Of a DNA stretch of 5,318 nucleotides, positions 1 to 5,318 are shown piece after piece. The position numbers were made by a program, and so were the translations under genes. Location: NCBI RefSeq assembly GCF_044324875.1, contig NZ_CP172190.1. One strand, 5' to 3'. Position 1 is the first letter of the stretch. Every line of letters starts with the position of its first letter. The notes beneath the pieces were generated by a model. The model did not search any database. It saw nothing but the letters and a program-made list of their open reading frames with translations, and was not told the DNA's origin. This stretch comes from Escherichia coli. GTDB lineage: Bacteria; Pseudomonadota; Gammaproteobacteria; Enterobacterales; Enterobacteriaceae.

Positions 1-147
1 GAATGTCGGGCTATTGGCAAGAGCATTGCGAAATACACGCACAGGAACTTCACGCCGGAAACTTTCGCACAGTATGTGGCTGATACGCACACGCCAGAAA
101 TTCAGGCTGCACGAGATGAAGCCGAAAAGCAAATATGCCATGACTAA
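1..147 (+). CDS. 3' end of an upstream gene (last ~48 codons; product not recognised)
   Basis: Frame 1 is open from the window edge to TAA at 145-147 and translates to a natural-looking acidic/helical tail (...AIGKSIAKYTHRNFTPETFAQYVADTHTPEIQAARDEAEKQICHD). The antisense frame is also open but is Arg/Cys/Phe-rich, as expected for the non-coding strand. The start lies outside the window. Confidence 0.35.
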   Translation, partial: ECRAIGKSIAKYTHRNFTPETFAQYVADTHTPEIQAARDEAEKQICHD

Positions 148-173
148 GGCTGTATGAGTATAAAAACGGCGTT

Positions 174-746
174 TCACGTCAAGATAAAATAAATACCTGT
201 ACCTAATATAAAAATGGAGCTACATATACTTATGTACCTTGAGAATGACGGAGTTAATTTATCCCTTATCGTCAAGCTAATAGCTATGTAAATAATATCT
301 GTCAGGAATGATATAAATATAAACAAAACACCCAATATAAAGAAATTTAATGCGATATTTGTATTATCATCTATAAATGCTGGTATTAATGCCGCAAAGA
401 ATAAATACGCCTTTGGGTTTAATAATGGTATAAGTAAAGGTTTTTGTACTTTGCTTTTTTTGTTTTTTTTATTAATTAAACCCATTACCCCTATGTATAT
501 TAAATAGCTTCCACCTAAGATCTTTATAATGTAAAAGTGTTGTTCTATGCTGGATGTTGAAGATAACGTGAAAAGAGATATTACCATGACGATTGCTTCG
601 CCAGATCTTATGTATACACTTGTTTTTATTGATGATTTAAGTCCTTGTGAAAAGGCGTTGTTTATAACCAATGCAACACCAGGTCCTATTGATATAGTTT
701 GAGATAAAGTTACGATAGCAAATGAAAATAATGTTGAATATTCCAT
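174..746 (-). CDS. LysE/RhtB-family amino-acid exporter (small six-helix inner-membrane translocator)
   Basis: 190-aa ORF, strongly hydrophobic with several predicted transmembrane segments. It carries an N-terminal SIGPG motif and a central PLLIPLLNPKAYLFFAALIPAFID segment matching the NPK...LFF...P(A/Q)FI signature of the LysE/RhtB family. Size is typical (about 190-210 aa). The gene is very AT-rich compared with the rest of the window. No strong Shine-Dalgarno is visible upstream of the ATG at 746. Confidence 0.75.
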   Translation of the reverse strand: MEYSTLFSFAIVTLSQTISIGPGVALVINNAFSQGLKSSIKTSVYIRSGEAIVMVISLFTLSSTSSIEQHFYIIKILGGSYLIYIGVMGLINKKNKKSKVQKPLLIPLLNPKAYLFFAALIPAFIDDNTNIALNFFILGVLFIFISFLTDIIYIAISLTIRDKLTPSFSRYISICSSIFILGTGIYFILT

Positions 747-1154
747 ATTTACTTACCATGATATATTTCGCGGGAGCTTTTCATATACATACTCCATTTA
801 TTCTCGGAGCGGATATACATTCATTTATAAAGTCATTCATTTTTCTATCCCCTGGTCTGAGTTTTTGCATTTGTTGTTATGACTATTTAATGCTAATTAT
901 CAGATAACCTTTTTTACACGCCATAAACACGATTATGATTGATGTTTTATATTGTCGATATTTCGTTGTCCAGACTGTATATGTCTGGAAATTTGTTTGC
1001 ATACGGGTTCGTTCCGTTTAGCTGGCTTTTTGGATGAGAAAGTTTGCTGTTTTGACCCGTTCGCGCTTCTGAACGGGGGTTTGGTGTTCTTTTGCGCGGC
1101 GTCTCCGATCCGCTCCCACACCTCCAAACCAAATACCGAAACCCTGCAAACCAA

Positions 1155-1232
1155 GCGAGTGGCGGCTCCGCTCGCCGCAGCCCCAGCGACCGAGCGTTAG
1201 CGAGCAAGTGGGCGAGGAAGCGGAAGTGAACC
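1155..1232. other. Putative primosome assembly site (PriA-type ssi/pas-like hairpins) flanking the origin
   Basis: GC-rich island in an otherwise AT-rich origin region. CCGCTCGCCGCAGCCCCAGCGACCGAGCGTTAGCGAGCAAGTGGGCGAGGAAGCGGAAGTGAACC closely parallels, from memory, the pMB1/pBR322 sequence just downstream of the ColE1-type origin (CCGCTCGCCGCAGCCGAACGACCGAGCGCAGCGAGTCAGTGAGCGAGGAAGCGGAAGAGCG), including the GAAGCGG core. A 6-bp stem hairpin CGCTCG...CGAGCG lies at 1169-1196. Confidence 0.35.
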
Positions 1233-1301
1233 GTAGCCAGGTTGAGCACATACGCACGGTTTTTCGACAGGTGATATGCGCCGAACCCGCATGAATACTG
1301 G

Positions 1302-1465: not shown

Positions 1466-1508
1466 GGGTCGAATTTTCTTATGGAATTCAAGAGTTTAGA
1501 AGACTATA

Positions 1509-1591
1509 GGTAATATAATTTAAGGTAAAGGCAATATGATTTAAGGTGGATAGGCAATATGATTTAAGGTAAAGGCAATATGATTTAAGGT
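1509..1591. repeat. Iterons: four direct repeats with ~21-23 bp periodicity (core GGCAATATGATTTAAGGT)
   Basis: Exact 18-mer GGCAATATGATTTAAGGT at 1530-1547, 1553-1570 and 1574-1591, plus a degenerate copy GGTAATATAATTTAAGGT at 1509-1526. The spacing of about two helical turns and the position directly upstream of a Rep_3 gene are the classic iteron arrangement. Confidence 0.85.
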
Positions 1592-1592
1592 A

Positions 1593-1601
1593 ATATCCAC
1601 A
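1593..1601 (+). promoter_or_regulatory. DnaA-box-like 9-mer (ATATCCACA) between iterons and the rep promoter
   Basis: 8 of 9 match to TTATCCACA, immediately after the last iteron. Confidence 0.4.
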
Positions 1602-1617
1602 GGAAAAGGGATATTAA

Positions 1618-1658
1618 AATTAAATCATATTGCCTTTACCTAAAGGAATGTTTATATT
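1618..1658 (+). promoter_or_regulatory. rep promoter (-35 TTGCCT at 1630-1635, 17-bp spacer, -10 TATATT at 1653-1658) overlapped by an inverted iteron (autoregulatory operator)
   Basis: 1622-1640 is the exact reverse complement of the 19-bp iteron core GGTAAAGGCAATATGATTT; extended to about 24 bp there is one mismatch. Inverted-iteron operators over the rep promoter are characteristic of Rep_3 initiators (dimer binding, autorepression). The -35 element lies inside this inverted repeat. A GAGGG Shine-Dalgarno sits at 1678-1682, 7 nt before the ATG at 1690. Confidence 0.6.
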
Positions 1659-1689
1659 TTACTCATTGCCTTAGGTTGAGGGATTTACA

Positions 1690-2391
1690 ATGTCGGATCT
1701 GATTGCCTACAAATCCAATGCACTGGTTGAGGCCAGCTATAAATTGACTCTTCAGGAACAGCGATTCTTGTTACTTTGCATTGGTCGATTGAAGTCGGGT
1801 TCTGATGCAGAATCCACTGAATTGCAAAAGACCATGACTGTTACCGCCGAAGAGTATTTCGACTCATTCCCTGATATGGGGCGGAAAAATGCCGAGGTTC
1901 AGCTACAGGAAGCAATTGATCGTTTGTGGGACAGGTCGATCATCCTTAAGGACGATGAGAAGCGCGAGGAGTTCCGCTGGATCCAGTATCGGGCACAGTA
2001 CGCTAAAGGTGAGGGCAAAGCCCAAATCACTTTTTCAGATGCGGTCATGCCTTATCTGACACAGTTGAAGGGGCAATTTACTAGAGTTGTAATTAAGAAT
2101 ATCTCCAATTTATCAAGAAGTTACAGCATAAGAATATACGAACTTCTCCAGCAATTCCGCAGCACAGGGGAACGTATTATCGCCCTCGATGATTTTCGCT
2201 CAATGCTTGATATAGAGCATAAATATCAAACATATAAGTCTCTGAACCAGCAATTATTAAGACCTTGCGTTGACGAACTGAATCAAAAAAGCGACTTGGC
2301 TGTAACGCTTGAGACGATCAAGAAGGGGCGCACGGTTGTAGCCCTGCATTTTCGCTTCAAGGAAGACAAACAGATCAAGATGACGATCTAA
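1690..2391 (+). CDS. repA: Replication initiator protein, Rep_3 family (iteron-binding RepA/RepE/pi-type)
   Basis: 233-aa ORF with good Shine-Dalgarno and promoter, directly downstream of the iterons. The N-terminus (YKSNALVEASYKLTLQEQRFLLLCIGRL) and the segment YSIRIYELLQQF...LDDFRSMLDIEHKY...YKSLNQQLLRPCVDELNQKSDL...KKGRTVVALHFRF parallel, from memory, pSC101 RepA, F RepE and pPS10 RepA. Length is within the family range (about 230-320 aa). Confidence 0.9.
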   Translation: MSDLIAYKSNALVEASYKLTLQEQRFLLLCIGRLKSGSDAESTELQKTMTVTAEEYFDSFPDMGRKNAEVQLQEAIDRLWDRSIILKDDEKREEFRWIQYRAQYAKGEGKAQITFSDAVMPYLTQLKGQFTRVVIKNISNLSRSYSIRIYELLQQFRSTGERIIALDDFRSMLDIEHKYQTYKSLNQQLLRPCVDELNQKSDLAVTLETIKKGRTVVALHFRFKEDKQIKMTI

Positions 2392-2402
2392 AATCGATTT
2401 TA
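2389..2402. repeat. 14-bp perfect palindrome TAAAATCGATTTTA overlapping the rep stop codon (copy 1)
   Basis: Self-complementary sequence read directly. The 13-mer AAAATCGATTTTA recurs exactly 90 bp downstream. Candidate protein-binding site; function unknown. Confidence 0.5.
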
Positions 2403-2410
2403 AGGCATCT

Positions 2411-2437
2411 AAAACGCCATCTGGTTCGTTTTTTTGG
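2411..2437 (+). terminator. Possible weak intrinsic terminator downstream of rep
   Basis: AAAACGCCATCTGGTTCGTTTTTTT: imperfect A/U-rich stem (AACGCCA / TGG..CGTT) followed by a 7-T tract, 20 bp after the rep stop. Confidence 0.35.
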
Positions 2438-2479
2438 TGTCAGGTATGCGATGGTACTACCAAGCAAATAAATTGCGTC

Positions 2480-2492
2480 AAAATCGATTTTA
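2480..2492. repeat. Second copy of the palindromic 13-mer AAAATCGATTTTA
   Basis: Exact repeat of the palindrome at the rep stop codon. Confidence 0.5.
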
Positions 2493-2774
2493 GAGAGCGG
2501 TATGGCAAACCATGTCGAACATTACTTGTGTTACTTGACGTGAGAGATGCGTTAATGCCGCCAGCAGCAGTCCCCCATCGAAGTGACTCATGTGTGACTA
2601 AAGAGCAAGCCTGAGCAACGTAGGAATCTCCAACCTTCAGGACGGGATGGATATCAAGCACCAGGGCACACTTGAAAACAAAACCTCGCCTCTGGCAAAG
2701 CGCGTCCTTTCACGATGACGTAGAGGTATTTGAATATCTGTAGGAGTTCATCACGCTATTTTAACGCTTAAAAA

Positions 2775-2840
2775 GCGCGTTTCTGATTGTGTAACTAAAC
2801 ACAGGTAGTAATTAGTAGGTGTGGGGGGGCAGAAACGCGC
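2775..2840. repeat. Inverted-repeat pair A: GCGCGTTTCTG (2775-2785) and CAGAAACGCGC (2830-2840), 44-bp spacer
   Basis: Perfect 11-bp inverted repeat read directly. It shares the 10-bp core CGCGTTTCTG with pair B at 3310-3373. The spacer contains a G7 run. Candidate operator pair or hairpin. Confidence 0.5.
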
Positions 2841-3180
2841 AATTAATATTTATCGTGAATTTGATTTTATGTCTAGTATCGAGAAACAGAATATAAAAAG
2901 ATTATCTTTGGAAATATAGAAAAAAAATAAAATAATAAACTAAAAACAATCAAAAAATAATAAATATTACACTACAATATGGCAATAATATATTCATTCA
3001 TATAGTGATATACGCTATGGTTTTCAAAATTTTCCTTGAGCTGAAGAACGGAGTTTTATGGCAAACGAGGTAATCTTGCACAGGAAAAATAGGTTGTATC
3101 TATGTCATGGTTTTGTTATTTTTTTTTGCTCAGTTATTGATGGTCAATATGTAAAATAAATCAGGTACTTCCTTACACTT

Positions 3181-3207
3181 ACCCTCATTCATTGAGGGTT
3201 TTTTTTA
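3181..3207 (+). terminator. Rho-independent terminator (plus strand)
   Basis: ACCCTCA-TTCAT-TGAGGGT: 7-bp GC-containing stem with a 5-nt loop, followed immediately by a run of 8 T. No T tract on the opposite strand, so it is unidirectional. No CDS lies upstream, suggesting it ends a small RNA or a decayed gene transcript. Confidence 0.7.
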
Positions 3208-3218
3208 TCCATATCTAA

Positions 3219-3531
3219 GTTGACATCCTCCATGCCCTGAAGGACGGGGTTTTACAGCACACCGGATAACTATCTCGACATGGATATTGATACACGTTAA
3301 AAATACGTGACGCGTTTCTGGCAGATATCTGAGGTCTATTTCGCCGTGTTAGCCACACTGTCAGAAACGCGTTCAATTTCTCCCGTTGAGCTGATATGCT
3401 CATCACCGCAATCACGGTAGTGTCCGAAGACGAACCGTTAATGCATCTTCCCCCCGATACTGGGCTTTCGGGGGGAATATTTACTCGGTGCGCCGTAAAA
3501 CCCCGTCCTTCAGGGCATGGAGGATGTCAAC
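3219..3531. repeat. 313-bp element bounded by perfect 37-bp terminal inverted repeats (MITE-like element or invertible segment); interior 239 bp
   Basis: 3219-3255 GTTGACATCCTCCATGCCCTGAAGGACGGGGTTTTAC is the exact reverse complement of 3495-3531. The interior contains its own inverted-repeat pair (3310-3373) and a 9-bp G/C stem hairpin (3449-3476). No convincing CDS inside, and no target-site duplication is evident at the boundaries. Confidence 0.6.
3310..3373. repeat. Inverted-repeat pair B: ACGCGTTTCTG (3310-3320) and CAGAAACGCGT (3363-3373), 42-bp spacer
   Basis: Perfect 11-bp inverted repeat (15 of 16 if extended), sharing the CGCGTTTCTG core with pair A. It lies inside the 37-bp-IR element. 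Confidence 0.5.
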
Positions 3532-3610
3532 ACGAATCCCCTATCTTCTTTTCAGTAAGAAACGGTCATTGAAAACTTATATAACACTACTTTTGGTGTG
3601 TATTTTGCGA

Positions 3611-3643
3611 TAAAAATATCCCCTATCCTAATGATAGGGGATA
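3611..3643 (-). terminator. Rho-independent terminator (minus strand)
   Basis: Plus-strand TATCCCCTATC-CTAAT-GATAGGGGATA forms an 11-bp stem (3617-3627 / 3633-3643). On the minus strand the stem is followed by A then UUUUU (plus-strand A-run 3612-3616). It is convergent with the plus-strand terminator at 3181-3207, so the two bracket the IR-bounded element. Confidence 0.55.
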
Positions 3644-3745
3644 CAAACGATGAATTAACAGTTCTTAATTCTCACGTGAAAAGATAGATTTTAACGAAGA
3701 CACAATCAGCAGTCTTATATCGAATGGCTATCGATCCTGAATCCT

Positions 3746-3838
3746 GATGAGTGGGGATGTTTCTGTACTACTAATGAAAAGCTATCCGGCTAGAGACTTT
3801 ACGATACAGAAACACCCCTCTTTCTTTTATCTCATCAG
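3746..3838. repeat. Long imperfect inverted repeat / hairpin (CTGATGAG...TGTTTCTGTA // TACAGAAACA...CTCATCAG)
   Basis: Outer 8-bp arms CTGATGAG / CTCATCAG and inner 10-bp arms TGTTTCTGTA / TACAGAAACA pair, with an asymmetric internal loop. Orientation and function are unknown. Confidence 0.4.
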
Positions 3839-4376
3839 ATGCCATAGCGCAAAACAATTTCGTTTCACAGATGTGACTTACAATCAAACTGTGCAACATA
3901 AATCACAAAACAAGAAGGTTTTGTTATTATTTTGTTGATGAGTTGTTTTTCGTTGGTTGTTTTTTTGAGGCGTACATACGCGCACAAATGTAAAACTAAA
4001 TTCGTGTTTTCGATAATTTTAAGGCCACAATCATTATGGCATTTTTTATCCTGATCGCCGTCAAAATCTGTCCTTCATGGCAGGATTTACGGCGATCCGG
4101 ATAACACCAAAGATACCTACATGCTCATTCCCCTGTGGTTTCCAGGATATCTTTCCTGTTTTCTGTGCTGTTCATCGCGCCGCCATACCCCGTAACGACT
4201 GCGCTCAGTACCCCTGAAATTTCGCTCGCCGGAAACACGCGGGTGTTGTTTTAACGTGTCCCGGTAGCGGTGTCCAGGCAGGTATGCTTCCGCCAGCGGA
4301 GTTGTTGATCTTGTGTTCTGTTTTTGGCTAGTATTTGTCCGAAAACCTGTCGCTCCGGCGACCAACTAATCTCCCG

Positions 4377-4471
4377 GTGGTCTGAGAGGGAGGCTTACGC
4401 GACCACACTGTCATCTCAGGATGACCAGCCAATGTTCCGGCAGTCTGAGAGGAGCGCCTTCGGGTGACTGC
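4377..4471. other. Two tandem structurally homologous hairpins (candidate structured RNA or protein-binding motif pair)
   Basis: Hairpin 1: stem GTGGTC (4377-4382) / GACCAC (4401-4406). Hairpin 2: stem GCAGTC (4440-4445) / GACTGC (4466-4471). The stem sequences differ but each keeps perfect pairing (compensatory changes). Both loops begin TGAGAGG and contain an inner mini-hairpin (GC-TTAC-GC; GCC-TTCG-GGT, a UUCG tetraloop). Both are preceded by CCGG. A further tetraloop hairpin GTCATC-TCAG-GATGAC lies between them at 4410-4425. Confidence 0.35.
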
Positions 4472-4934
4472 AATATCCCATGAGCCTGGAAGAGGATGCC
4501 TATATGGCGGCAACATCCGTTTAGCCTCTGGAAACGGATGTCACCAGTAGCTGGTGACTGAGGTACGTTATTTTTACCTTCGGATTACCCGTACGGTTTT
4601 GTATGTCATGAAACTTACGAGTTTTCCTCTCGCAGAGTGGCGAAATGCCTTATATATCTGCGTCTTAAAGATTTTCTGTCAGGCTGCATGAGCTTCTTGT
4701 GACTGTGCGCACGGCATAAGGCCATTTGAAATTTGGCTGCTTGCGTGTGTACGTGGAGTCTGAAGCTGTGCGGCGTCACTTGCGTGCGACCGGAGGGAAC
4801 ACCAAGTGACGCCACAACAATCTGCCCTGAAAGCAGCATCACGTAAGGCCTGCCAGAAAATCGTCGCTCGTGACCAGCGTTCTGATGACCGTTTTGTCTT
4901 TCTGACAGCGTCTTTCAGTAACGTGTCCATGCCT

Positions 4935-4981
4935 TTCCGGCGCGTCCGTTTTCACGGACGGCCACGCCGGAATGTCTTTTT
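4935..4981 (+). terminator. Rho-independent terminator (plus strand), compound GC-rich hairpin plus U tract
   Basis: Outer stem CCGGCG (4937-4942) / CGCCGG (4965-4970) and inner stem CGTCCGT (4943-4949) / ACGGACG (4954-4960) with loop TTTC, followed by TGTCTTTTT (4973-4980). It lies inside the 66-aa ORF 4806-5006, which argues that ORF is not a real CDS. Confidence 0.55.
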
Positions 4982-5037
4982 AAACTTCATAATACATGAG
5001 AGGTAAGTGTATTAACTTGTTGAAAAAAGGAATAAAT

Positions 5038-5127
5038 ATGAAAAATCGTTCTGAAGTCGGAAGGCGTCATCGTAAGATGACGGGGAGTAAAAAATCGCCC
5101 TGGTGCACAGGTAGCGAACTCCTGTAA
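5038..5127 (+). CDS. Possible small basic ORF (29 aa, MKNRSEVGRRHRKMTGSKKSPWCTGSELL); leader-peptide-like, speculative
   Basis: ATG at 5038 is preceded by AAGGA (5027-5031) with 6-nt spacing. The ORF is very short with no recognisable family, and lies about 55 bp downstream of the terminator at 4935-4981. Confidence 0.2.
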   Translation: MKNRSEVGRRHRKMTGSKKSPWCTGSELL

Positions 5128-5263
5128 AAACTCAACATGTGCAAGCTCTGCTACATCGACATCAAACGAGCCAGGAAGGCGAGCAACCGCGTTACAGAGC
5201 CGTCCGTGATGACGAAAAACTAACAATATCAACGATCTGGTCTGTTTATCGGAAGGGCATCTC

Positions 5264-5318
5264 ATGCAGTTGAACTTTCAGAACGGATGGTTTTCTGCAT
5301 CTTTTTTAACAGGGGGAT
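5264..5318 (+). CDS. Possible 5' end of a downstream gene running off the window (MQLNFQNGWFSASFLTGG...)
   Basis: ATG at 5264 is preceded by GGAAGGG (5251-5257) with 6-nt spacing. Only 18 codons are visible. The same sequence could alternatively fold as a weak hairpin followed by a T tract (5295-5307), so the call is tentative. Confidence 0.25.
   Translation, partial: MQLNFQNGWFSASFLTGG

Follow-up and report, generated by a model that had tools for sequence, protein, structure and literature searches.

An orphaned LysE-family exporter gene on a recombinant small plasmid of Escherichia coli, the probable survivor of an enzyme-exporter cassette

The window analysed here is the whole 5,318-nucleotide (nt) stretch from Escherichia coli (contig NZ_CP172190.1), identified by megablast as a complete circular small plasmid. 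At 174..746, on the minus strand, it carries an intact coding sequence (CDS) for a 190-amino-acid (aa) exporter of LysE/RhtB type, called LysE below. In the explanation proposed for this gene, which is considered probable, LysE is what remains of a make-and-export cassette, orphaned on a recombinant plasmid by deletion of the enzyme gene that preceded it. A LysE gene on a cryptic small plasmid is a routine finding and is already annotated as such; the modest novelty lies in a conserved enzyme-exporter cassette and in the recurrent loss of its enzyme.

A two-gene cassette truncated by deletion

The intact cassette is found in 5.7-kb Col156/MOBQ plasmids such as NZ_AP027798 (L006), in which a gene for a 316-aa 'hypothetical protein' precedes LysE on the same strand and ends with its stop codon 6 nt before the LysE ATG, a spacing that points to one operon. 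The window aligns with this plasmid in two blocks, 140-797 with L006 2949-3606 (99.4% identity) and 794-1079 with L006 4466-4751 (99%), and 863 bp of the 316-aa enzyme gene are missing from it at a frameshifting junction, 794-797. Both ends of the lost gene are still recognizable. The 3' remnant (753..797, minus strand), located by blast mapping and translation, comprises the last ~14 codons and the stop (753-755); its translation, ...MEYVYEKLPRNISW*, matches the C-terminal end of the 316-aa protein exactly, and its stop still lies 6 nt upstream of the LysE ATG. The 5' remnant is a 19-codon open reading frame (ORF; 781..840, minus strand) that opens with the ATG at 838-840, continues through the first 16 codons of the enzyme gene (794-840), where the N-terminus MNDFINECISAPRING matches the 316-aa protein, and ends out of frame at a TGA (781-783). 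Before this ATG the window has the Shine-Dalgarno sequence GGGGAT, and the intact plasmids have GAGGAT. The operon upstream region (841..1026, minus strand), made up of the 5' untranslated region and the presumed promoter, is conserved in the intact-operon lineages A and B. Position 1026 is the right-hand end of the AT-rich cassette, a boundary taken from the correspondence of L006 4699 with position 2133 of another plasmid record, L007. At the other end, the 3' flank on the LysE side (140..173, minus strand) is common to all cassette plasmids. With only the first 16 and the last ~14 enzyme codons left (753-840), the window is a degraded derivative of the enzyme-LysE cassette.

The opposite polarity, in which the enzyme gene would be an insertion in the 5.7-kb plasmids, was rejected, because the Shine-Dalgarno sequence, the ATG and 16 plus ~14 enzyme codons, mutually out of frame, survive in the window, and because the pairing is ancestral across the eight contexts described below. 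The enzyme gene has been lost, and LysE is therefore orphaned in the window plasmid. An earlier examination of this DNA (the sequence-only reading) had taken the exporter for cargo beside a replication module; its family assignment stands, but the gene is not free-standing: it comes second in a two-gene operon that has lost its leading gene to deletion here.

The same deletion junction recurs in the plasmids pGF4-F, pMTY9803_Col2 and pLH50-c-F and in the metagenome contig L021. Additionally, a second deletion of ~0.92 kb (L006 3718-4619; pRHB13-C14_6, L008 1246-1356), with a different junction, is present in five other plasmids, where it takes the 5' part of the enzyme gene and ~107 nt upstream while leaving LysE intact. 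The two enzyme deletions are independent.

The conserved stretch before the operon includes a perfect palindrome, TTATCAGATAA, at 899-909, which lineage A retains and lineage B has in altered form; it could be an operator.

Distribution and conservation of the pairing

The block at 140-1079 is present in ~34 plasmid records of PLSDB, 32 of them from E. coli and two from Salmonella, and in 28 of 5426 complete E. coli genomes (~0.5%), always on a plasmid and never on the chromosome. Two allele lineages can be distinguished, at ~99-100% and 89.8% DNA identity. Among the 34 LysE-bearing PLSDB records the enzyme gene is intact in 27 and deleted in seven, and no enzyme-positive record is devoid of LysE (0/27).

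The enzyme gene is followed directly by LysE in all eight contexts examined. Two of them are plasmid lineages A and B, both on 5.7-kb Col156/MOBQ plasmids, with lineage B LysE 89% identical to the window protein. The others are contig L015 of an NCBI assembly (enzyme 70%, LysE 51% identical); the Pectobacterium brasiliense chromosome, where an ABC-transporter operon and gcvTHP flank the pair (LysE 41%); Citrobacter werkmanii, beside TraD/MobA genes (LysE 36%); a Klebsiella oxytoca IncFII plasmid; the metagenome contig L016; and NZ_CP020429.2 (L023), a 207-kb 'plasmid' labelled Streptococcus sp. FDAARGOS_192, at 1488-3102 (enzyme 43%, LysE 27%). In this last record the LysE-family gene, a divergent one, begins 1 nt after the enzyme homologue, within a region of ~30% guanine-plus-cytosine (GC) content; with it the pairing reaches a record whose label is that of a Gram-positive. 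Streptococcus was considered as the low-GC donor of the cassette and rejected, the pair being too distant at 43% and 27% identity.

Low GC content accompanies the cassette wherever it was compared with its surroundings, with 32-33% in a 51% GC locus of Pectobacterium and ~31% against a 46-52% backbone in L006. Since the cassette is AT-rich in every host, AT-richness belongs to the cassette itself. Between the plasmid lineages, the ratio of nonsynonymous to synonymous substitution rates (dN/dS) is 0.18 for LysE and 0.08 for the enzyme, values which indicate that both genes have been under purifying selection.

Adjoining the cassette in the 5.7-kb plasmids, and missing from the window, is a gene for a 238-aa hypothetical protein (L006 2209-2925), for which PADLOC gave a weak match to AbiZ (E=6.5e-5, 20.5 bits) and no other convincing family match was found.

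The exporter: reading frame, composition and family

The LysE frame is open to a degree that composition does not explain. The longest stop-free run in 140-947 spans 192 codons, whereas 2000 shuffles gave 63 on average and 159 at most; the ORF is not due to chance, and the probability of 190 stop-free codons at the composition of the exporter region is ~2e-7. The ATG-initiated product matches PF01810 (LysE) over profile positions 4-191 of 193, with E=7.9e-21 and 74.9 bits against a gathering cutoff of 25.6, which bears out the earlier assignment to this family with a full-length ORF of 190 aa; RefSeq likewise names it 'LysE family translocator'.

The marked AT-richness that had been reported for the gene relative to its flanks was confirmed. 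The CDS has 29.5% GC (30.1% over 174-930), against 59.3% at 1080-1300 and 51.7% at 4100-5000; repA has 44.3%, and the rest of the plasmid 43.7%. GC content at third codon positions is 26% in LysE and 51% in repA. The E. coli chromosome has a GC content of ~51%. Codon use in LysE is strikingly unlike that of E. coli, with ATA for 21 of 33 Ile codons, TTA for 14 of 23 Leu codons, and CTG once only.

AlphaFold2 predicts a confident fold (predicted local distance difference test score, pLDDT, 90.5) of six helices in a 3+3 layout, with helices 1 and 4 broken (3-18/22-34, 36-62, 64-91, 105-108/111-124, 131-161 and 166-189); a hydropathy scan detected only the four strongest segments. Against a 62-sequence alignment, all invariant and near-invariant columns are kept in the window protein. 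The family residues G21, P22, G78, Y81, L82, G86, N110, P111, K112 and P122 are in place, and with them the conserved N-terminal G-P helix break, the central N-P-K motif and the G/Y/L cluster of helix 3. Taken together, the sequence and the model place the product of 174-746, an intact exporter with six helices, in the RhtB branch of the LysE superfamily, with efflux as its predicted activity.

Within that branch, no characterised subfamily claims the protein. NCBIfam matches it best to TIGR00949, the model of the RhtB family, with 68.7 bits where 183.95 are required, and its scores with the equivalog models all fall short of their cutoffs: LeuE 50.1/165, RhtB 44.3/209, RhtC 22.4/288, EamB 14.5/193 and LysE 12.3/213.65. 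By these scores the exporter is best described as RhtB-like, short of certified membership of the RhtB family (Transporter Classification, TC, 2.A.76). With the AlphaFold2 model, Foldseek retrieved nothing meaningful from the PDB (best E=0.049, a chloroplast TIC subunit), an uninformative outcome since the library lacks a close structure from the family. PADLOC returned no defence-system match for LysE. Literature searches on the LysE family, Col156 and other small plasmids, the methyltransferase and the protein accessions found no paper on the LysE gene or the cassette.

Homologues of 200 aa, 100% identical to the window protein, are common in metagenome and Logan gene calls and run on for 10 codons past the TGA. 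They were considered as a longer isoform and rejected, since in them the TGA stop (174-176) is read as Trp, giving the ending ...ILTWNAVFILIQP. These calls are probably an artefact of genetic-code mis-assignment triggered by short AT-rich contigs, and they call for caution in annotation, because metagenome gene callers over-extend LysE when TGA is read as sense.

A small and distinct exporter clade

When 1.84 billion cluster representatives were searched exhaustively with HMMER, a single full-length one came up at 51% identity, followed by others at 41%, 36% and 35%; no other representative exceeds 50% identity to the window protein. Beneath these clade matches lies a generic RhtB/LysE background at 25-35% identity. 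A profile built from nine clade members separated them clearly, with every member scoring at least 229 bits and the next match 122 bits, and the window protein lies on the clade side of this score gap. In the profile search, all members that carry a name are from E. coli, Citrobacter or Pectobacterium. The clade carries the motif SIGP(G/A)V in place of the PGP usual in the family, and the central loop in the plasmid lineages is shortened and lysine-rich. On this profile evidence, the window LysE belongs to a small, distinct clade limited to Enterobacterales.

The missing partner enzyme

Pfam gave only sub-threshold matches of the 316-aa enzyme to methyltransferase and spermine-synthase families, and PADLOC only a trivial match of methyltransferase type. 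Its AlphaFold2 model, built from a 43-sequence alignment, is of high confidence (pLDDT 93.8). With this model, Foldseek retrieved CysG/BelI and CmoA/YecO as the best PDB matches (E ~1e-9, template modelling score to the target 0.65-0.80), and a sequence-profile search of the PDB recovered CmoA as the sole family (E=0.0015). CmoA makes carboxy-S-adenosylmethionine; S-adenosylmethionine is abbreviated SAM below. CmoA is also the top NCBIfam match, at 24.9 bits against a cutoff of 193.3, a score so far under the cutoff that the enzyme is not a CmoA orthologue. The predicted fold and the profile matches suggest that the deleted partner is a SAM-dependent enzyme of class I whose relatives include CmoA and two carboxylate O-methyltransferases, CysG and BelI. 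Many Arg, Lys and Glu residues are invariant in the 43-sequence alignment, which would fit a small polar substrate. CysG and BelI are SAM- and metal-dependent O-methyltransferases that carry out the first step of beta-lactone formation (PMC11408123).

Comparison with known systems

The closest characterised relatives are the RhtB-family exporters of E. coli (RhtB, RhtC, LeuE and EamB/YfiK; TC 2.A.76), which share with the window protein the PF01810 domain, a similar size, the six-helix 3+3 arrangement with helices 1 and 4 broken, and the central NPK motif. The window LysE differs from them in being only ~25-35% identical to generic members, in having SIGP(G/A)V rather than PGP and a short lysine-rich central loop, and in being plasmid-borne, of 29.5% GC and natively coupled to the gene of a SAM enzyme. 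The founding lysine/arginine exporter, LysE of Corynebacterium glutamicum (TC 2.A.75), belongs to the same superfamily, with presumed efflux of a small amino-acid-like solute driven by proton-motive force, but specific similarity to it is essentially absent (TIGR00948, E=0.11, 12.3 bits against a cutoff of 213.65), and the window gene is without regulation by an adjacent LysG-type regulator.

Exporters of this type are also known from biosynthetic clusters. GvgJ and GvgK of Pseudomonas fluorescens WH6 are RhtB-type exporters within the cluster for 4-formylaminooxyvinylglycine, a secreted amino-acid analogue (bioRxiv 10.1101/080572), and PimT is a LysE-superfamily exporter in a biosynthetic cluster of Streptomyces natalensis (PMC2698837). 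The cassette resembles these systems in that an RhtB-type exporter is encoded beside the enzyme or enzymes that make, or in the cassette would make, a secreted, non-proteinogenic amino-acid-like compound. It differs from them in being minimal, with one enzyme and one exporter, and in residing on mobilisable plasmids of 5-6 kb, and in the window the enzyme has been deleted. As for the partner enzyme, it shares the predicted class-I SAM-dependent fold with CmoA and CysG/BelI; in contrast to them it has an extra N-terminal helical region of ~90 residues in the AlphaFold2 model, and neither a tRNA-modification nor a beta-lactone context surrounds its gene.

Proposed role and alternative explanations

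In the proposed scheme, the SAM-dependent enzyme would modify or build a small polar metabolite, amino-acid-like or carboxylate in nature, and LysE would expel it, driven by proton-motive force as in the characterised members of the LysE/RhtB family. The substrate is most likely the small product of the enzyme rather than a standard amino acid, because all equivalog cutoffs failed. The AT-rich cassette would move on small Col156/MOBQ plasmids and into chromosomes. In the window lineage, the frameshifting 863-bp deletion removed the enzyme gene and kept its start codon, the upstream region and the whole exporter; the orphan would still pump if its substrate came from outside or from another replicon, and would otherwise be a relic that has not yet decayed. 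Transcription of LysE in the window is plausible, because the operon upstream region is retained. The family membership, the deletion, the composition, the conserved pairing and the mosaic structure are matters of observation; we infer expression, substrate and direction of transport.

Several results weigh against this interpretation. A scan of 1-1300 found no consensus sigma-70 promoter or terminator on the minus strand, and the overall counts of promoter and terminator candidates were not above those in shuffles; in the upstream-region alignment, conservation is confined to close plasmid lineages. The Shine-Dalgarno sequence before LysE is weak, and the deletion broke the coupling across 6 nt to the upstream gene. 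The extremes of ATA and TTA usage, together with the AT-richness, may limit expression in E. coli. LysE of pMTY9803_Col2 (174-740) has suffered a 6-bp in-frame deletion that shortens it to 188 aa and turns FIFISF into FISF within a predicted transmembrane helix; this may be early decay after loss of the enzyme, and is compatible with relaxed selection. On the enzyme side, identity to CmoA and CysG is only 9-16%, a remote likeness, and the rhizobial homologues that form the bulk of the enzyme family have no adjacent LysE gene.

Some of these results are equally the case for a silent relic, in which LysE would have been neither expressed nor useful since the enzyme was lost and the plasmid would be mostly debris around a Rep_3 replicon. 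This is rated the highest of the three other explanations considered for the window plasmid, though it remains doubtful as a full account. Only two intact genes are annotated, 55% of the plasmid (2392-5318) is without a CDS, and other relics are present in the form of a rep fragment and the ends of the enzyme gene. The undetected promoter, the codon use, very poor for E. coli, and the 6-bp LysE deletion point the same way. LysE is moreover 99-100% identical among the deletion-carrying plasmids, so there has been too little time for decay to become visible. Against a relic, the ORF is intact in the window, in pLH50-c-F, in pGF4-F and in all five plasmids with the second deletion, these plasmids coming from Japan, Switzerland, the UK and elsewhere; each of the two independent deletions left LysE precisely untouched; and the window allele keeps the operon upstream region.

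It is rather unlikely that LysE is stand-alone cargo which by itself confers tolerance to excess amino acids or toxic analogues, the enzyme being an incidental neighbour. The best partial matches are indeed amino-acid exporters, LeuE (50 bits) and RhtB (44 bits), and the family members RhtB, RhtC, LeuE and EamB are often broad in specificity; LysE is also intact in at least two independent enzyme-deletion lineages (7/34 PLSDB records). However, every equivalog cutoff failed, the 6-nt spacing points to one operon, and the E. coli chromosome already has several RhtB-family exporters. The enzyme and exporter genes also adjoin in 8/8 contexts, at identities down to 27-43% and across phyla.

A slimmer chance still is given to an immunity role, in which the enzyme product would be a toxic antimetabolite, LysE would serve self-protection, and enzyme-less plasmids would stay resistant to neighbours with the full cassette: losses are asymmetric (two enzyme deletions with LysE kept, in seven records, against 0/27 enzyme-positive records without LysE), small Col-type plasmids are classic carriers of allelopathic systems, and RhtB-type exporters occur in antimetabolite clusters (bioRxiv 10.1101/080572), but there are only two deletion events, toxicity and product are hypothetical, the chromosomal copy in Pectobacterium adjoins housekeeping genes, and the asymmetry may be due to chance or to toxicity of intracellular accumulation. 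The wider form of this idea is similarly improbable. In it, the cassette would serve gut Enterobacterales as a minimal system, mobilised by plasmids, to produce and export an allelochemical or signal that is derived from SAM and resembles an amino acid, with enzyme-less plasmids as immunity-only cheaters; if true, such plasmids would parallel orphan colicin-immunity genes at the level of small molecules. The repeated and precise escape of LysE from deletion, on which this idea draws, amounts to two events and is worth testing.

The genomic context ties an exporter clade to a CmoA/CysG-like SAM enzyme, both uncharacterised, and common Col156/MOBQ plasmids spread the pair through E. coli and Salmonella of human, livestock and environmental origin. 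Known phenotypes are rare among small 'cryptic' plasmids, and if the pair does produce and secrete a metabolite, it would give them a new trait. The enzyme-less derivatives provide a natural control for testing this idea.

Plasmid architecture and the convergent neighbour

Close relatives of the window confirm its extent. pMTY9803_Col2 (NZ_CP135677, 5310 bp) matches it end to end at 99.7%, and pLH50-c-F (NZ_CP100506, 5319 bp) at 99.75-99.95% in two blocks, the number of blocks being due to a different record start; the junction from 5318 to 1 is directly continuous in pGF4-F. The RefSeq twins carry two intact genes only, annotated 'LysE family translocator' and 'replication initiation protein', together with one pseudogene fragment marked at 1-114, and in three of them 2392-5318, ~55% of the plasmid, is without an annotated CDS.

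The gene upstream of LysE, which had been described as its convergent partner, proved not to be a gene. Positions 1..115 (plus strand) are an internal fragment of a Col156/ColE2-type rep gene, 99.1% identical to L007 3176-3290 and L008 2464-2578, which lie inside annotated rep CDSs (L007 2507-3538; L008 1795-2826). Its frame is closed by TAA 5307-5309 across the circular junction, and the relic is therefore without a start; the Prokaryotic Genome Annotation Pipeline (PGAP) treats it as a pseudogene lacking both termini, and Pfam gave no match for its ORF. Similarity to rep stops after 115, and the TAA at 145-147 lies in the flank that follows LysE in cassette plasmids. The neighbour thus has neither its own start nor its native stop. 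The reported gap of about 27 bp to its stop is accurate, 26 nt separating TAA 145-147 from TGA 174-176, but sequence mapping indicates that this TAA is fortuitous and that the tight convergent spacing is a recombination scar; with a pseudogene scrap for a neighbour, it means nothing for function. Recombination scars here mimic a tidy 'convergent gene pair', which is a point to heed in annotation.

The rest of the plasmid is a series of blocks. A scrap resembling the 3' end of mobA (99-133, by blast) is followed by the AT-rich cassette with its deletion (140-1026), common to ~34 plasmids. Next come pieces of Col156 backbone (1027..1257, no strand assigned), with 1027-1079 from upstream of rep and 1069-1257 from downstream of it (1027-1075 corresponds to L007 2133-2181, and 1069-1257 to L007 3628-3819); the Col156 rep gene itself is missing between them, and they include the GC-rich stretch that had been remarked on beside the origin. 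A Rep_3 replicon (1167-2483) is 96.5% identical to a widespread family of 4,091-bp plasmids and contains the active replicon (1506..2391, plus strand), with iterons at 1506-1612, an inverted copy at 1620-1644 and the Rep_3 repA at 1690-2391, whose product matches Rep3_N (125.9 bits) and Rep3_C (71.2 bits) in Pfam. Beyond it, 2484-4218 is common to 5.6-kb MobQ plasmids and stops ~70 nt into mobQ, and 4219-5318 is a rarer segment.

The window plasmid is therefore, block by block, a recombinant that combines the cassette and old Col156 scraps with a Rep_3 iteron replicon. pGF4-F (L004, 5333 bp), which has a Col156-type rep, a Rep_3-type rep (82% identical to that of the window) and the same deletion allele, looks like a cointegrate-stage relative. 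The compositional mosaic that the sequence-only reading had proposed is upheld in this way, in composition and in history alike. The placement of LysE 'immediately beside' the origin holds only loosely, as the iterons (1506-1644) lie ~760 nt from the LysE start with three blocks between. That reading is partly supported overall: its observations of the sequence were largely right, and of its interpretation, mosaicism and family hold, the function was incompletely described and the neighbouring gene was misjudged.

Further observations concern the part of the plasmid outside the cassette. GC content falls to 25-29% at ~2800-3100, inside the CDS-free 2392-5318, which has no more of a mobQ gene than its last ~70 nt. 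A 55-nt inverted repeat, with arms at 3219-3273 and 3477-3531 that are 91% complementary and flank 203 nt, looks like a miniature inverted-repeat element, and weaker partial copies of its arm lie at 4083-4105. Over ~4423-4766, large conjugative plasmids of E. coli share ~92% identity with the window. Two Rfam matches above the gathering score, STAXI RNA at 4409-4568 (plus strand, 89.1 bits, E=1.5e-18) and EFASI RNA at 5046-5168 (plus strand, 71.7 bits, E=2e-13), stand on a plasmid without mob or tra genes.

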